DNA of 64,000 nucleotides from a virus: IMG/VR virus record IMGVR_UViG_3300049571_000380, positions 1 to 64,000 of that record. One strand, written 5' to 3'. A model generated the notes under the pieces. That model did not search any database. It was not told the origin of the DNA and saw only the letters and a program-made list of their open reading frames with translations. Made by a program: the position numbers and the translations under genes. Below, piece by piece: positions 42,883-50,639 of the stretch (its first letter is position 1; each line of letters opens with the position of its first letter).

Positions 42883-44670
42883 TTACTTGCCAGCCTTGCG
42901 CGCGACCCCGTCCAGAGCCTTGCGCGCGGTCGCGCGGGTGATCTCCCCCGCCTTCCACCCCGCCGGGCGCCGCTCACCCTTCGGGGCGAACTCCGGGCGC
43001 GGCTCGTGCGAGACGACACCCGCGCACGTCCCCTCAGCGAACGATCCGACCGAAGCGGCCTTACGTCCCGCCTTGCGCTCCGCCGTGGACGCGATCTCGC
43101 CCCGCGCGATGGCAGCCGCGCGCTCCGCCTCCCGCTTCGCCTTGCGCTCCCGCAGGATGGTTCCGACGATCGTCGAGTGACGACGACGCCATCCGCGCGA
43201 CTTGCCCTTGTGCGCGATCTCCGGGAGTTCCCCGCACGCCACGCACTCACGGCCGGTCACTTCCGGGTCAATCCCGGGCCGCACGGTCGCGGGAAGCTGT
43301 CCCGTTCCCGCCTTGCCGATCCATCCGCCGGGCTGCACGGGCGCCATGTTCTGTGAACCGGTGTTCGCCGCGCCGTCCACCGAACCGTGCCCCCGGGACA
43401 GTGCCAGCCGCGCACCCTTGCGCACCGTGGCGCCCGTGTCCGCCCCGCCCTTGAACTCCCGCGCGTCCGCGCCCCGCTCTTCGATCTCCGCCGCGCGCCG
43501 CTTGTCAGCGGAGGCAGGGTCACCGGGCACGCTCCCGTGTTCCACGATCTCAATCGACTTGGACGACAGGCCCTTACCGGCCGGAGTGGCGACGCCGCCC
43601 ACGTTGTGCTTGCCGATCTTGTCGACGTCCGCGCCCGCGCCCGTGGCCTCCCGCACTTCCACGCCGTTGTGCTTGCGCATGCCGCCCTCACGGCTCACCG
43701 CGATCACCCGGGCGCACTCCGGGCACTTGCCGGAGTGCTTGCCGTTGTAGTCGTCGGGGACGCTCACCGTGTGGTCATCCCGCATGACGCGCGTCCCGGG
43801 TGCCGGAGCCGAACCGGTCCCCTCGCACTTGATCTTGGAAACCTTCGGGCCGGATTCCTTGCCTCCCGCACCCCCGGGCAGGAGCGGAATGTACGTCGTG
43901 CACTCCGGGCACTTCCCGTGCGTCCGCTCCGGGTTGACCGTGGAAACCTCACCCTTGAACGTGCAGACCAGAATTTCGGCCGCACTCCCGGAAACCGTCC
44001 CGCTTGCCAGGCTCACCGTTCCGGGCGCGGGCAGTGCCGCAATCTCCGCCGGAACCGCGCCGCCGTTCGCGTAGTAGCGTTCTACGGCCTCCCGCATCTC
44101 AGCGTGCGTCAGACCGGTCACGCCGACCGTTTCGCCGTCCGCCGCCGCCGGGGCAACCGTGGCGGAGTCCTCCCGCTTAGCGGCCTCCCGCGCCTCCCGC
44201 TGGTCTGCGAGCCGCTTACGCTCCCGCGCCACGGCCGCGCCCCGCTTGCTCTGGACAATCGCGCCCTTGACGTCCGCCGGAGTGAGTTCCCGCACGGCCG
44301 GAGCGGAGTCCTCCCGCGTGTCCGTCCCGTTCACCTCCGCCGCGCTGAACAGTTCCGCCATGTCGTCCGCGCCGAACTCCCACGCGTGACGCTCACCGCG
44401 CGCCGATTCGAGCGCAGCGCTCCCGTCCGCCGTGGCCAGCCACTCGACACACTTCGGGCACCGCTTGTCACCCTGGAATTTCTCGGAAGCCTTTTCCGCC
44501 GGGATGCTCCCGCCGCATGCCCGGATCACCCGGGCGCCGCTCCCGCCTACCGGGTCACCCTGGCAACCGGCCGGAATGAACACCGCGTGTCCCGCGCCCC
44601 GCTCACCCTGCCCGTACATCCGGGCGAAACCGTCGCACGAAACCGCCAGAACCTTGCCCGTAACGTTCAT
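42883..44670 (-). CDS. 595-aa multi-zinc-ribbon protein, probable first early gene
   Basis: CPKC, HGKCPEC, HSGKCPEC, CVACG motifs; GGGAAG RBS before MNVTGK. Confidence 0.65.
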   Translation of the reverse strand: MNVTGKVLAVSCDGFARMYGQGERGAGHAVFIPAGCQGDPVGGSGARVIRACGGSIPAEKASEKFQGDKRCPKCVEWLATADGSAALESARGERHAWEFGADDMAELFSAAEVNGTDTREDSAPAVRELTPADVKGAIVQSKRGAAVARERKRLADQREAREAAKREDSATVAPAAADGETVGVTGLTHAEMREAVERYYANGGAVPAEIAALPAPGTVSLASGTVSGSAAEILVCTFKGEVSTVNPERTHGKCPECTTYIPLLPGGAGGKESGPKVSKIKCEGTGSAPAPGTRVMRDDHTVSVPDDYNGKHSGKCPECARVIAVSREGGMRKHNGVEVREATGAGADVDKIGKHNVGGVATPAGKGLSSKSIEIVEHGSVPGDPASADKRRAAEIEERGADAREFKGGADTGATVRKGARLALSRGHGSVDGAANTGSQNMAPVQPGGWIGKAGTGQLPATVRPGIDPEVTGRECVACGELPEIAHKGKSRGWRRRHSTIVGTILRERKAKREAERAAAIARGEIASTAERKAGRKAASVGSFAEGTCAGVVSHEPRPEFAPKGERRPAGWKAGEITRATARKALDGVARKAGK

Positions 44671-44728
44671 GATCTTCCCGCTTTCCGTTGTCCGTGCGCC
44701 CGCTTTCCGGGGCGCATCTGCCGACAGT

Positions 44729-44908
44729 TCACGCCTTACGCGACGTGAACAGAACTCCCGCATTCCCGTTTGCCAGGGCCCCGACCCAATCGGCCGTTTC
44801 GCTGTAACCCCCGGGGAGGGGGCGCCACTGAATCTCGCGCCCCCGGCGGTACGTGATCCCGCTTTCCGAGATCGTCACCGTTCCGCCATTGTCAAGCCTG
44901 ATCACCAT
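44729..44908 (-). CDS. hypothetical protein (59 aa)
   Basis: ORF from MVIRLDN, GGAAGG RBS. Confidence 0.4.
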   Translation of the reverse strand: MVIRLDNGGTVTISESGITYRRGREIQWRPLPGGYSETADWVGALANGNAGVLFTSRKA

Positions 44909-44959
44909 TGCCGGAATCCTTCCCGAACCTCCATGCGGAGGGAAGAACAGACAGGGTTC

Positions 44960-45950
44960 ACCCGTACTGAGTTGCCCGGTTCTAGACCGTTGCCCAATCG
45001 GACGTGAGTTGTGTTGTCTGTTCGTGCTCACCGCACGGTGAGTGTGGAACATCCCGGGGGAAACGGCGCCGCATCGGAGCGCGTCCCGTAATCCGTGGCG
45101 GATTCGGCGCGTCGCAACGTGTCGCGTCCGAATCCCCCGGGGGACGGGAGCGCTAAGCGTCTCCCGTCCGTCGCGGGCAGGGGTTCCGACACCCCTGGTA
45201 TCCCGCCGTACCGTGCAACGTCACCCGACGGTTTCCCGTCCGTCGAGAGTTGCTGATCATCCATGCCGTACCCGCATGGTGCGTTTGACTGATAGGCCGA
45301 CTCCCGCAAACCGGTCACCCGGGGAGTGTCCCGGGGCGATTCTGGCACTCCGCACGGGCATTGATCCCGCACCACACGTGCCTTACGTGATTGGGCCGGG
45401 GGTTATCGCGCTTGCGTTGTCCGGACCGGCTAACTTCCGCCTCCCGGCGGTAGTGCTTCGCTGCCTACGCTTTCCACGGTATTCCCGTTCCCCCGTGCGC
45501 TCAGGTTGCGCCTGTAAGGGGACCGACTAGGGACCGGTATTCACGTGCGGGTCCAGACAGACAACGCAAGGGTTTGGGTCGCTCGCCCCGTTGTGGCCTA
45601 TCAGGGGGCCCCTTTTCCGGCTAGGGGGCCCGTACCGTTTGCGCCGCTCCCACACTCCCGGGTGCGCCCGGGGATCGTGTGCGGGAGGGCTCCGAAAATC
45701 ACAAGGAACCGCATTCGAGTGCATCCCGCGCCATTACGGCTAGCGCGCTCCGCTCCCGTCCGCCGCATCGCGGGGAATCGTGCCTCCCGCTTTCCCGCCC
45801 GACGGCACCCGGTTGCCCGGCGCGTCAGTGCTTCGGATGCGCGCTCCCCGGTCACCCCCCGCGCTAAGCGGAGGAACACCCGGGGGCGTGTTGCCCGGGG
45901 ATGGGACCCGGGCGGTCGTGCTGTGCGCCCCGCGCCGCGTCCCGCCGGAG
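44960..45950 (-). ncRNA. putative large structured non-coding RNA or long structured leader
   Basis: no credible CDS; near-continuous hairpins including minus-strand GNRA-capped stems (45227-45240, 45437-45450). Confidence 0.4.
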
Positions 45951-46087
45951 CGGGCGCCGCGTCGTGGCGACAGGCCAAACACCACCACACTCATGGCTGC
46001 CATTGCAGGTGTGGGGTTGCTGACGGCATGTCATGTGATCAAGAAACGTGCAGGTCAGAGCGCTACCGCACTTCAGGACCAGGAACG

Positions 46088-46103
46088 TGTGACGCAGATC
46101 ACA
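46088..46103. promoter_or_regulatory. Crp/Fnr-family consensus box TGTGA-N6-TCACA
   Basis: TGTGACGCAGATCACA. Confidence 0.55.
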
Positions 46104-46332
46104 ATGGGCTCTGACCTGCGGAAACGACGAGTTCAAGATTTTTCTCGAAAAAGGTTCTCGCAACTCTTGCACCTGCGGAAACGTCAGACACGAATCTGTT
46201 TGTGCAGGTCAGAGGCATGGAGATCGTACCGGACTTCACGACACGAAACGGACATGTACGACAGATGGGTCAAGAATTTGCGGTGAGCAAACGGATGAGC
46301 AAATCGGTAGGTGTAGCAAGCATCGATAAAAA

Positions 46333-46348
46333 TGTGACGCAGGTCACA
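46333..46348. promoter_or_regulatory. Crp/Fnr-family consensus box TGTGA-N6-TCACA
   Basis: TGTGACGCAGGTCACA with AAAAA 5' flank and T 3' flank. Confidence 0.55.
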
Positions 46349-47084
46349 TGTACAAACTCGGACATAGCTACGCGAGACAGGCAGGGACGGGGAGGGTTTC
46401 GGGTGCGAGGAAGGTGACCCAACCTGTGTGCATAGCTCCCACATGTCCGGTTCATACACGTACGCGCACGTCAGCGCTGCGACCTGCGATGTATATACAG
46501 AGAGTGAGAAGCAAGTGAGGGTCAACCACTCTTAGTTACTTATGTGAGCGGGATCGCTCCGCTTTCTCGCGCTCGAAACCGGTACAGCGAACTGTCGAAA
46601 CCGCAGGTCACAGCGTTGTCCCGAATGTCGGAGTTTGCAGTGATCATGCTGCTGACCTGCGGAAACTCGGAATGCTCCCGGAGTGCAGCACGTCTAGCGC
46701 GCTCCCACATTGCAGGAACATGTGTGTAGGTATGTCTGATTTGAGAGGGAAGGGAAGGGTGTGGGAAGAATGCGAAGCTGAGGGGGAGTGAGCTGCACAG
46801 ATGAGCACGTGAGTACACATGTGAGCAGTGAGCGGGAGCGCAGGGGTGCGAGCGCACGCGCGTGCATGCGCGTGCGCTCGGGTGCGGGTGCGCGGACGCG
46901 TCGCGCGTGGCGCGCGTGTGCCTGCCCGCCCGGGTGCCTGTGAGCGCGCATGCTGCGCCCCGGTACGGGGTGCCATGGGGGGGCGCGTGAGCGGGTGATC
47001 ACTCGGTATGCAGGGTGCGCATGATCATGCGTTTATCTGTGCGGGTGAGCGCACGTGAGCGGGAGCGGGAACGCGCGGGAATTC

Positions 47085-47580
47085 AGGGGGAATGCGGGAG
47101 CACTCGGAACGGGAATGCGCGGGTATCTCGATATCGGTATTTCGCATTCACGTCTGTACTGCTCACACCTATTACACACATACACATGAACCTATGCAGT
47201 GCAAGGAAAGCGGGAGGTGAGAGAAAAGGAAAGCGAGGGGAAACGGGAAGCGCATTCGGAATCGGTATAGCTGCTATCTCTCGCCACTCACACAGGGAAT
47301 GCGGGGAGAAATGCAACAGATGGAATGCAGGGGGAGTGCGCAGCAATGGGAGGGATGGAATGCAGGGGGATCAACAGCTAGCTAATGCAGGGATACCCAG
47401 GCTCTATCCACCAGCTCTGCATCTCACGTCAACGCACACATACATGCACAATGAATGCACATGGATATGCAAGGGAATGCGAGCGGGAGTGCGAGCGGTG
47501 CAGGTGGGAGAAAACCTGCGGGAAATTCGCGGGAAATTCTGTCGGGATTTACTCACGTTAGAAAACCAAATGCGGAATTT
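47085..47580 (+). repeat. G-rich tract with repeated (G)GAATGC/RAATGC hexamers
   Basis: GGAATGC at 47089, 47112, 47296, 47322, 47357, 47474 plus variants. Confidence 0.6.
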
Positions 47581-47635
47581 AATTTGAATTTGGGTCCCAG
47601 GTTAGGACCATGCATCCATCCCCGCACTTTTCGCT

Positions 47636-47878
47636 TCAGCCGTTTTGTACCTTCTCCGTGCGATCCCTCAGAGCCGCGAGCACCTCTTGTGCCGAGAGTT
47701 CGCTCCGCAGTTCCTTGCTCTTCAGCCACTGCCGGTGTGTGAAGATCACGCATTCCATCGAGCAGAACGGATCCCCGGAGAGCTTCCAGCACACGGGCCC
47801 TTCTCCCGTTGCATCGTCGTCCGGCGGGATCTCGTCGCCACAGCGGGGGCACTGCGCGGAATCAGTAGGAGTAGTCAT
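47636..47878 (-). CDS. small Zn-binding protein (CxxC...FCSxEC)
   Basis: CPRCG and FCSMEC motifs. Confidence 0.5.
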   Translation of the reverse strand: MTTPTDSAQCPRCGDEIPPDDDATGEGPVCWKLSGDPFCSMECVIFTHRQWLKSKELRSELSAQEVLAALRDRTEKVQNG

Positions 47879-47980
47879 CGCAGATTCCCAGCTTTGTCAG
47901 GATCCAGTGAAGCGGTGAACGGATGCGAAGGCACCGGGGGCACACCAGTGCGTTCCCGATCCACGCCTTCGTGCGCGCCT

Positions 47981-48310
47981 TCACCGGCACTCGTTCAGCG
48001 CGTAGGGAAGCATCGCGGTCGCCTCCGGCTGGGAGTAGCCCGCCGCCTCGATCGCCGCCAGCATGAGCCGGTAGTCCGGGGAAGAACTCGCGGTCGCACT
48101 TCCGCCGATCTCACCCTCACCGGGAAGGGGTCCGGCGGCTGCCGCGCAGACGGCCGCCTGCTCGTCCCAGGTCATGTCGTTCCAGCGCTCGGAGACCTTC
48201 TTCAGGTCCGCCGAGGCCGTCGATGAGGGCTCGGGGGTGTCCGAATCCCCGCCGGAACAGGCGGTGAGCGCCGCCAGGAGCACGGGAACGACCAGCAGGG
48301 ACCTCTTCAT
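47981..48310 (-). CDS. lipoprotein
   Basis: MKRSLLVVPVLLAALTAC lipobox; AAGGAG RBS. Confidence 0.75.
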   Translation of the reverse strand: MKRSLLVVPVLLAALTACSGGDSDTPEPSSTASADLKKVSERWNDMTWDEQAAVCAAAAGPLPGEGEIGGSATASSSPDYRLMLAAIEAAGYSQPEATAMLPYALNECR

Positions 48311-49720: not shown

Positions 49721-49854
49721 AGATCCCCCAGGGTTTCCTTGCGGTAGCGGGCGCGCTCGTGGGCCCGGATCGTCTTCTCGCTGAGCAGGGAGGAGACGAT
49801 GCCGGAGGCCATGCCGATCAGGCAGGCCAGCAGCAGGAGCAGCCAGGGACTCAC
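49717..49854 (-). CDS. 45-aa membrane microprotein
   Basis: SPWLLLLLACLIGMASGIVSSLL; coupled to thyX stop. Confidence 0.55.
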   Translation of the reverse strand: MSPWLLLLLACLIGMASGIVSSLLSEKTIRAHERARYRKETLGDL

Positions 49855-50639
49855 ACCTTCCTCCAGCTCGGGATCCAGGCGCCGTCCTCGGTTACCTCGT
49901 AGTCCCCGAACAAGGCGGGGGCCTCGGACTTCATGATCTCGCCGACCCGGTTGAAGACCAGGCGGATCTCCTCCTCGGCCTGCGGGGAGGTGCGCAGCTC
50001 GATCACGTGCCTCAGTGTGCGCAGGTTCGCCGTCCAGACCAGGCCCGTGGCCACACCCTGCGGGGAGAACCGGCGCATGAAGGAGGTCTTGAGCTTCTTC
50101 TCGTGGAAGGAAGTGCCTTCCTCGTCGAGCCCGAAGTGCTCGGTCATCCAGCCCTGGAACTCCTCCATGTCCTTCAGGAGCTTGTTCCCCCGCTCGCGCA
50201 GCTCGTCGTCGCCGTCGGTCCAGGCGGGCCACCAGAACGGGAAGTCGTCCAGACGCACGAACCGCAAGGACTCCTGGGAGATCCCCACGCCCACCCGGTG
50301 GCGCACGTGGTCATGGGTGAAGACGCGGCTGACGTTGTGGAACACGAACGTGAAGCTGGCGTGCTCCAGGACGGAGCCGTGCATGCTGGCCAGCACGTTC
50401 TTCAGGTAGCCCGGCTGGTCCTCGCGGACCCGGGTGACGTTCGGGTTCAGGCCCGGTTCCCAGCTCCGGTAGCAGATGCGCCCGGCGAACTCGACGAGGT
50501 CTTCCGCGTCGAACGTCTCGCCCCGGTCGATCCTCTCCAGCCAACGCGTGCCGCCGACGTCCTCCAGGTAGGCCGCGATCTCCTCGTAATCCAGGGAGGG
50601 CCTGTTGATCAGGTACACCTGGGGCTTGACCTCGTGCAC
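49851..50639 (-). CDS. thyX: FAD-dependent thymidylate synthase
   Basis: GRICYRSW, HGSVLEH, VSRVFTH..RHRVGVGISQESLRFV, NLRTLRHVIELRTSPQAEEEIR. Confidence 0.95.
   Translation of the reverse strand: MHEVKPQVYLINRPSLDYEEIAAYLEDVGGTRWLERIDRGETFDAEDLVEFAGRICYRSWEPGLNPNVTRVREDQPGYLKNVLASMHGSVLEHASFTFVFHNVSRVFTHDHVRHRVGVGISQESLRFVRLDDFPFWWPAWTDGDDELRERGNKLLKDMEEFQGWMTEHFGLDEEGTSFHEKKLKTSFMRRFSPQGVATGLVWTANLRTLRHVIELRTSPQAEEEIRLVFNRVGEIMKSEAPALFGDYEVTEDGAWIPSWRKV

Follow-up and report, generated by a model that had tools for sequence, protein, structure and literature searches.

Structured RNAs longer than 500 nucleotides (nt) are, to our knowledge, very few beyond ribosomal RNA, introns and RNase P. 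The phage-borne RNAs GOLLD and ROOL have recently been found to form unprecedented RNA-only assemblies. Other structured RNAs of phages and bacteria are the pRNA of phage phi29, a packaging-motor RNA (Rfam RF00044), and the processive antitermination RNAs put of HK022 and EAR of the Bacillus eps operons, which act in cis and are ~70-120 nt long with two or three helices. ColE1 RNA II and the T4 and T7 origin transcripts are structured RNAs that adjoin replication origins. Here we analyze a 64,000-nt stretch of viral DNA (the window), which is the first 64 kilobases (kb) of the 192,484-base-pair (bp) virus genome IMGVR_UViG_3300049571_000380 of IMG/VR, and describe a large RNA encoded in it. 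The segment ~46,005-44,946, read on the minus strand, encodes a real, ~1.06-kb, multi-domain structured RNA: it is non-coding, conserved, modular, held together by covarying base pairs, present in a single copy per genome and not in Rfam. An earlier sequence-only reading of this DNA had suggested an undescribed large structured RNA or a giant regulatory leader, a suggestion supported by covariation above that of controls and by the lack of an Rfam match. We favor, with moderate confidence, a giant structured leader RNA of the right-arm genes, encoded on the minus strand in cluster BM phages.

Rfam 15 covariance models (cmscan) gave no match at the gathering score over the whole window, and in 44,600-47,800 a relaxed threshold of E≤10 returned only three chance microRNA (miRNA) or small nucleolar RNA matches, none of them in the RNA domains, which agrees with the earlier remark that no recognizable family is present. 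We also found no description of the RNA in the literature. Like GOLLD (RF01998) and ROOL (RF03087), the candidate exceeds 500 nt, has multiple domains supported by covariation, is borne by phages and has no assigned function. It differs from both in that neither covariance model matches it (Rfam, up to E≤10), in its greater length (~1.06 kb), in its occurrence in phages of a high-GC actinomycete, in its fixed position beside a terminal repeat and in being probably contiguous with a downstream open reading frame (ORF). GOLLD is often found beside tRNA genes in phage or prophage DNA, whereas ARAGORN detected no tRNA or transfer-messenger RNA gene in the 64-kb window. RNAs of the GOLLD and ROOL kind form homo-oligomeric cages or rings. 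Having no model match and no tRNA neighborhood, the candidate was rejected as a member of either family. The phi29 pRNA is likewise a structured RNA encoded near the genome end of a prolate-headed phage, but it is only ~120-174 nt long, its model finds no match in the Rfam scans, and phi29 has protein-primed ends rather than direct terminal repeats; identity with pRNA was rejected, and we found no evidence for a packaging role. A retron msr-msd, the template of a diversity-generating retroelement and a group II intron RNA were also rejected, as no reverse transcriptase (RVT_1) match occurs anywhere in the 192-kb genome and no intron or retron model of Rfam matched. The element may well be a new giant phage RNA outside the catalogued families.

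Homologs were collected with a neighboring protein of 626 amino acids (aa) as anchor, with a pattern built on the invariant GCAATGGCAGCCAT and with BLAST. They come from six isolates (Satis, JustBecause, Kela, Kradal, Quantum and EhyElimayoE) and ~12 metagenome or IMG/VR contigs, with identities to the window of 92% at most, falling to patchy similarity. Three metagenome pattern matches (L020, L026, L031) were due to chance, showing no similarity and no match to R1, our covariance model of the 3′ core of the RNA. After removal of these and of duplicates, ~14 sequences representing ~8 lineages were aligned in minus-strand orientation in four blocks, each of which was folded with RNAalifold:

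Block A1, 3′ domain, 45,300-44,915: 13 sequences, 80 consensus pairs, 29 of them compensatory
Block A2, 5′ domain, 46,066-45,640: 14 sequences, 69 consensus pairs, 18 compensatory
Block A3, central domain in the window's variant, 45,640-45,290: 7 sequences, 90 consensus pairs, 24 compensatory
Block A4, central domain in a second variant, from L007, L008, L023, L028 and L012: 5 sequences, 93 consensus pairs, 14 compensatory

For the minus-strand RNA of the window the consensus comprises ~240 base pairs, and compensatory double changes among the ~8 lineages are seen at 71 of them. We compared the structures with 500 column shuffles per block and with controls in which the 3′ partners were slid by 1-3 columns. 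Standard pairs fill 95.0-97.3% of cells in the given structures and 86-92% in the column shuffles (96.9% versus 91.7% for A2, 97.3% versus 90.4% for A3, each 0/500), and the observed number of compensatory pairs or covariation score was reached by none of the 500 shuffles in any of the four blocks. Sliding the partners left 0-9 compensatory pairs (2-6 for A2), compared with 14-29 observed, and lowered pairing to 33-48%. Covariation among homologs, which the sequence-only reading had named as a check, is strong, exceeding both types of control in all four blocks. In the stem 45,279-45,261, for example, L010 differs from JustBecause and L009, its relatives at 96-97% identity, by two compensatory exchanges (CAUGC/GCAUG versus CGCGC/GCGCG), and the first stem of the 3′ core reads CCAUGC, CCGCGC, CUAUGC or GAAUGC depending on the lineage. 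As a negative control we used an adjacent, equally conserved motif array of the same genomes (46,021-46,406), in which 4 of the 42 pairs are compensatory, the covariation term is -0.42, and the apparent helices are invariant inverted DNA motifs. Because this array is nearly without covariation, sequence relatedness alone is not the cause of the RNA signal.

Folding energies relative to dinucleotide shuffles distinguish the 3′ domain from the remainder. The 200-nt tiles in 45,000-45,299 have z-scores of -5.8 and -3.7 and the domain 44,915-45,300 has a z-score of -4.0, while the central (-0.6) and 5′ (-1.1) domains are no better than coding controls (-0.7, -2.2). Stability beyond shuffled sequence, to which the earlier reading had also looked, is therefore seen in the 3′ third and not in the central and 5′ domains. 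As the region is 66-70% GC and its shuffles fold nearly as well, this comparison has little power here. The ten inverted repeats listed in that reading are all present in the sequence, and eight coincide with comparative consensus helices (45,027-45,042, 45,142-45,169, 45,178-45,197, 45,227-45,240, 45,261-45,279, 45,316-45,340, 45,647-45,686 and, in part, 45,437-45,450); the other two (45,100-45,135 and 45,606-45,631) are window-specific or replaced by other pairings in relatives. Two proposed GNRA tetraloops (GAAA and GGGA) are not conserved, the GAAA register being broken in Satis, L007 and L011 and the GGGA loop being confined to the window. At the first of these sites covariation supports a CUCGACGG/CCGUCGGG register with an 8-nt loop, (A/G)NGGGNNN.

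The structured part, at ~44,946-46,005, is slightly larger than the 44,960-45,950 first proposed. It is made up of the following elements:

45,640-46,005, minus strand: 5′ domain, from the A2 alignment
45,606-45,637, minus strand: hairpin between the 5′ and central domains, variable in length and sequence by lineage, with 3 bp common in the consensus
45,290-45,603, minus strand: central closed domain, variant A, a multi-helix junction, from the A3 alignment
45,140-45,289, minus strand: 3′ core, consisting of the linker CAAACGCAC and four conserved hairpins, present in every lineage (A1 helices 2-7, many compensatory pairs)
45,279-45,261, 45,253-45,215, 45,206-45,173 and 45,169-45,142, minus strand: the four 3′-core hairpins, from the A1 consensus
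44,946-45,136, minus strand: 3′ accessory sub-domains with helices 45,136-45,058 and 45,022-44,946 (A1 helices 8-14), thermodynamically the most stable part

The 5′ domain opens with an invariant hairpin, AUGG-CAG-CCAU (46,003-45,993), contained in the invariant 14-nt GCAATGGCAGCCAT, and continues with a conserved 15-bp GC helix (45,969-45,926) and several covarying hairpins. A predicted long-range helix between 46,061-46,055 and 45,695-45,689 is invariant and competes with a DNA-motif inverted repeat. The JustBecause group carries a different, longer insert at the variable hairpin 45,637-45,606. Variant A of the central domain is closed by a covarying 10-bp helix between 45,603-45,593 and 45,301-45,290, spanning 314 nt, and its interior holds further covarying long-range helices with spans of 194, 160 and 95 nt. 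At the other end of the RNA, the last 3′ accessory sub-domain is missing in the Satis and L011 lineages (alignment gaps in L005 and L011), and the 3′ sub-domains are, as far as this comparison goes, dispensable.

Exactly the central segment is replaced by variant B in L007, L008, L023, L028 and L012. A 14-bp helix, of which 5 pairs are compensatory, closes variant B in turn, and the two variants have in common an inner element, CUUACAG-hairpin-GGGAAU. The BLAST breakpoints at 45,635 and 45,290 fall on the domain borders. L007 and L008 are close relatives of the window outside the central domain (85-87% identity) yet carry variant B, whereas the more distant JustBecause and Satis have the same central variant as the window. 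Since the distribution of variants crosses relatedness in this way, the central domain has been exchanged as a structural module, and the alignments indicate that the ~315 nt are swapped as a unit between the two variants by recombination.

This architecture bears on a simpler explanation, in which the region is a string of independent local hairpins on an early transcript, such as terminators, RNase processing or stabilizing sites or remnants of lost gene cassettes, with no higher-order fold or collective function. A stem-loop gene-start cassette is indeed visible at 44,941-44,918, and in the 5′ and 3′ domains the supported helices mostly have spans below 80 nt. The central domain, however, has covarying helices of 95-314 nt and is closed in both variants, the loops and linkers of the RNA are strongly conserved in sequence, and the whole kilobase is gene-free in all lineages and single-copy. 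We consider independent hairpins improbable.

The same region lacks protein-coding character. Codon-position GC is flat from ~44,760 to 47,650, whereas in the flanking genes it differs by 0.2-0.45, and this locus is the sole stretch of more than 0.8 kb in the whole 192-kb genome that lacks codon-position GC periodicity. Indels among homologs are mostly not multiples of three (non-multiples versus multiples: 556 versus 97 in A1, 620 versus 324 in A2, 114 versus 0 in A3 and 51 versus 0 in A4), and substitutions show no 3-periodicity. Nothing is annotated at the locus in the GenBank records of JustBecause, Satis, Quantum, Kradal and EhyElimayoE. Flat codon-position GC, non-triplet indels and blank annotation together bear out the earlier claim that no ORF here has coding character, with 44,915-46,005 as the non-coding interval. 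Unrecognized protein genes in a compositionally odd region could be argued from the mechanical ORFs of 87-162 codons present on both strands, but the missing periodicity, the indel lengths and the substitution pattern speak against them, and downstream of the conserved ATGGCAGCCAT relatives have 1- and 2-nt deletions that break the frame. A protein-coding reading is refuted as far as sequence analysis permits, and we regard it as extremely improbable.

The RNA is probably encoded on the minus strand. Consensus folding energies are lower for the minus than for the plus strand in all four blocks (-80.9/-69.4, -63.2/-50.1, -98.6/-92.3 and -109.9/-86.9 for minus/plus). In the 3′ domain, 10 helices of the minus fold and 5 of the plus fold have at least two Watson-Crick compensations, and the cells counted as G.U and A.C number 75 and 10 in the minus fold and 15 and 8 in the plus fold. 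Where neither fold pairs a column, purines are in excess on the minus strand (A/U 1.42, G/C 1.19), and paired columns are balanced (1.03, 1.07); an excess of purines at unpaired positions typically marks the sense strand of a structured RNA. These consensus-energy, helix-level and loop-composition tests supersede a wobble-asymmetry test. Consensus energies, purine-rich unpaired columns and gene orientation thus favor the minus strand, as had been proposed, making it probable and not proven.

Strand asymmetry also bears on whether the element works as DNA, with single-stranded hairpins or cruciforms near the terminal repeat serving replication initiation, concatemer processing, packaging or injection. 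Parallels are found in T7, where concatemer junctions pass through a hairpin intermediate, and in T5, whose injection-stop region is rich in repeats. A distance of 0.55 kb separates the RNA locus from the inner edge of the terminal repeat, an iteron-like motif array with AT cores adjoins the locus, the two strands have similar thermodynamic folding stability, and in the helices common to both strand folds the wobble asymmetry is not decisive (19 G.U versus 15 A.C). However, helices of up to 314 nt and multi-way junctions are unexpected for duplex DNA, G.U pairs are abundant in the covarying 3′-domain helices on one strand only (75 versus 10), and unpaired positions are purine-rich on one strand. 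The array, which is truly DNA-like, looks different, with invariant palindromes and virtually no covariation. We judge a DNA-level element to be very improbable, more so than a string of hairpins.

Over the RNA region, the closest cultivated relatives are JustBecause and Kela (~75% nucleotide identity), followed by Satis, Kradal, Quantum and EhyElimayoE (~70%). The region is 75% (JustBecause) and 70% (Satis) identical to the window, about the genome average (average nucleotide identity (ANI) 74.4%), and the neighboring 595-aa gene shows 58% (JustBecause) and 42% (Satis) aa identity and ~71% nucleotide identity. By this measure the conservation of the RNA region equals or exceeds that of the adjacent gene. 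With R1, each phage genome yields exactly one match, scored at 169-185 bits; that of the window reaches 185 bits at 45,129-45,291 on the minus strand. Nothing convincing was found with R1 in 103 Streptomyces genomes, where a single 22-bit partial match was taken as chance, and the exact pattern of the 3′ core had no match in 596 Gb of prokaryote genome contigs. In these searches the RNA is specific to Streptomyces jumbo phages of the Satis/JustBecause type (cluster BM).

Phages of this type are jumbo siphoviruses with genomes of 184-187 kb and very long prolate heads (PMC6687918), which measure 285 x 47 nm in Satis and JustBecause (PMC6687918); the genome-wide ANI of these two is 74.4% (PMC6687918). 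Their terminal repeats were deduced from read build-up in the genome announcement (PMC6687918), and comparing each genome end to end gave exact direct repeats of 1,043 bp (JustBecause) and 1,049 bp (Satis). Since the virion terminal repeat aligns inside the window (46,563-47,602), the record is a permuted assembly running through the virion ends. IMG/VR classes it as "linear, no end repeats" although it spans the terminal-repeat equivalent, which makes it a permuted, collapsed assembly, and its first 24 bases are found again near its last bases. The RNA locus belongs to a unique non-coding stretch, bordered by the final genes of the right arm and by the right-hand copy of the ~1.04-kb terminal repeat, whose inner boundary is 0.55 kb away; the flanking genes on both sides are all on the minus strand. 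One gene on the repeat side encodes a ThyX-like thymidylate synthase (49,851-50,639, minus strand) with 65-73% identity to chromosomal ThyX of Streptomyces, Actinomadura and Spirillospora, a closeness that suggests fairly recent acquisition from an actinomycete host. The features around the RNA are:

46,563-47,602, no strand: equivalent of the virion direct terminal repeat, from alignment of the JustBecause and Satis repeats
46,040-46,660, no strand: low-GC region with an array of DNA motifs that are invariant in 14 relatives, located upstream of the RNA and across the terminal-repeat boundary
44,918-44,941, minus strand: generic gene-start cassette, a hairpin CCUCC-GCAU-GGAGG followed by UUCGGGAAGG (ribosome-binding site), read from the sequence
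44,729-44,908, minus strand: 59-codon ORF directly 3′ of the RNA, annotated as Kela gp338 and Satis gp337
42,883-44,670, minus strand: 595-aa ORF, corresponding to JustBecause gp339

Both edges of the terminal repeat are conserved, and in its interior (~46,900-47,400) the window and JustBecause show no alignment. The repeat also holds a 32-bp near-perfect palindrome of alternating purines and pyrimidines (46,849-46,880), whose tile has a z-score of -6.0 on the minus strand and which draws the chance matches to miRNA precursors in Rfam.

The order array, RNA, 59-codon ORF, 595-aa ORF is kept in every lineage. The 59-codon ORF has a GGGAAGG ribosome-binding site, and its frame is kept through 3- and 6-nt indels among homologs. 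The 595-aa ORF probably starts at the ATG at 44,670, behind a GGGAAG site; the mechanical start at 44,763 overlaps the 59-codon ORF. Its product is rich in Ala, Gly, Arg and Lys and has four zinc-ribbon-like CxxC motifs. Neither Pfam nor PHROGs assigned a family to the 59-aa, 595-aa or 253-aa neighbors. Sequestering of the Shine-Dalgarno sequence of the 59-codon ORF by CUUCCC is possible in the window and was rejected as a general feature, being absent from L021 and L008. In two lineages, those of Satis and L011, the final conserved helix of the RNA is followed directly by the ribosome-binding site of the 59-codon ORF, and no hairpin intervenes. The helix of the gene-start cassette is invariant, so covariation is uninformative on it.

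With the terminal repeat near one end of the RNA and the conserved 59-codon ORF directly downstream of the other, a giant leader is the best reading, and its main rival is a stand-alone, trans-acting "ornate" RNA of the GOLLD or ROOL kind. Co-transcription of the RNA with the downstream ORF is fairly likely. The stand-alone RNA would be a discrete, stable species of ~1 kb, ended or processed at the hairpin 44,941-44,928. Its role would be that of a folded particle, perhaps homo-oligomeric, or else that of a scaffold or decoy that engages some factor of the phage or its host. Its size, closed multi-domain architecture and conserved loops resemble those of large ornate RNAs, a GC hairpin follows it in most lineages, and its conservation is above that of adjacent protein genes. 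Phage-borne giant RNAs have precedent (bioRxiv 10.1101/2024.12.08.627333). On the other side, nothing resembling a terminator separates the RNA from the ORF in the Satis and L011 lineages, no promoter or terminator was identified in 44,500-48,000, the GOLLD and ROOL models are unmatched, and there are no tRNA genes nearby. A stand-alone RNA is in our estimation rather unlikely.

Several points weigh against a giant leader. The promoter, transcript ends and expression are all inferred. No sigma-70-type promoter was predicted in 44,500-48,000, where an intrinsic-terminator scan gave terminator-like sites at chance level; we found no recognizable phage-encoded sigma factor (sigma-70 region 2) and no phage-encoded T7-type RNA polymerase, the control of the polymerase search being uninformative. 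In the window and most lineages the RNA is separated from the ORF by the GC hairpin 44,941-44,928, at which termination or processing could release a separate RNA. Covariation statistics are somewhat inflated by related sequences and by consensus structures derived from the same alignments, a worry that the array control limits and does not remove. Stability above dinucleotide shuffles is restricted to the 3′ domain, A2-A4 are ambiguous in the helix-level strand test, and the wobble counts of the shared helices do not settle the strand. Finally, we know of no precedent for a 1-kb leader among cis-acting antitermination RNAs, which are ~70-120 nt long.

If the giant leader reading is correct, transcription would proceed leftward from a terminal control region, the array at 46,040-46,660, and the RNA would form the untranslated head of a transcript that also covers the 59-codon ORF and the right-arm genes. 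The folded leader might then act in cis on its own transcription complex or transcript, a step we consider rather doubtful. One speculative option is that it makes polymerase termination-resistant, so that it reads through the GC-rich stem-loops between downstream genes. Another, alone or in combination and equally speculative, is that it shields the kilobase-long untranslated 5′ end from Rho and RNases, and the RNA might further be a platform for a host or phage protein that recognizes the recurring GGGA(A/G) loops. By analogy with put and EAR, the candidate would be a folded RNA heading a long operon whose genes are separated by stem-loops and acting on its own polymerase. It differs from them in being ten times larger and in having closed domains, and no sequence similarity can be claimed.

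The array upstream of the RNA contains CTGACCTGC in both orientations, palindromes of the form TGTGAC-N4-GTCACA, ATAAGTAACTAAGAGTGGTTGAC and, beside the terminal-repeat boundary, TGTATATACA; two of the palindromes are TGTGAC-CTGC-GTCACA, at 46,088 and 46,333. With its invariant palindromes and almost no covariation (4/42), it appears to behave like protein-binding DNA, and its probable role is that of a control region, as promoter/operator, origin or packaging site, outside the folded RNA. Three copies of CTGACCTGC also occur in a second low-GC intergenic region of 0.5 kb (genome positions 74,354-74,631). The motif CGGGAR is strand-polar around the array, with 11 plus-strand copies in the terminal repeat, 10 minus-strand copies in the RNA region (44,915-46,010) and none in the array; the terminal repeats of JustBecause and Satis hold 8 and 4 copies, and the genome background is ~1.2 per kb per strand. 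A longer form, GGGAAnGCGGGAG, has the same polarity, and GC skew changes sign around the array. A long folded transcript by an iteron-like AT-core region, with G-rich CGGGAR motifs on the presumed transcript strand, recalls ColE1 RNA II and the origin transcripts. The difference is that the candidate, on its favored strand, would be transcribed away from the array.

More broadly, and tentatively, the element may represent a class of giant ornate RNAs of its own: at ~1.06 kb it exceeds GOLLD, it would be restricted to Streptomyces jumbo phages whose prolate heads are extremely long, and it would act as a folded machine, not as a passive leader. It would then be the first product beside the terminal repeat, with an exchangeable central domain, and could serve as a processive antiterminator, as an RNA component in replication or packaging at the end of the genome, or as a decoy for host factors. 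Current annotation of these phage genomes leaves ~3 kb empty at this locus. The candidate RNA placed there is larger than GOLLD and ROOL, belongs to another host phylum and shows modular exchange at the level of whole domains, and its position at the head of the right arm by the terminal repeat is defined and functionally suggestive. Because the RNA is carried by six cultivated phages that grow on the genetically tractable host Streptomyces lividans, its expression, structure and function are directly testable.

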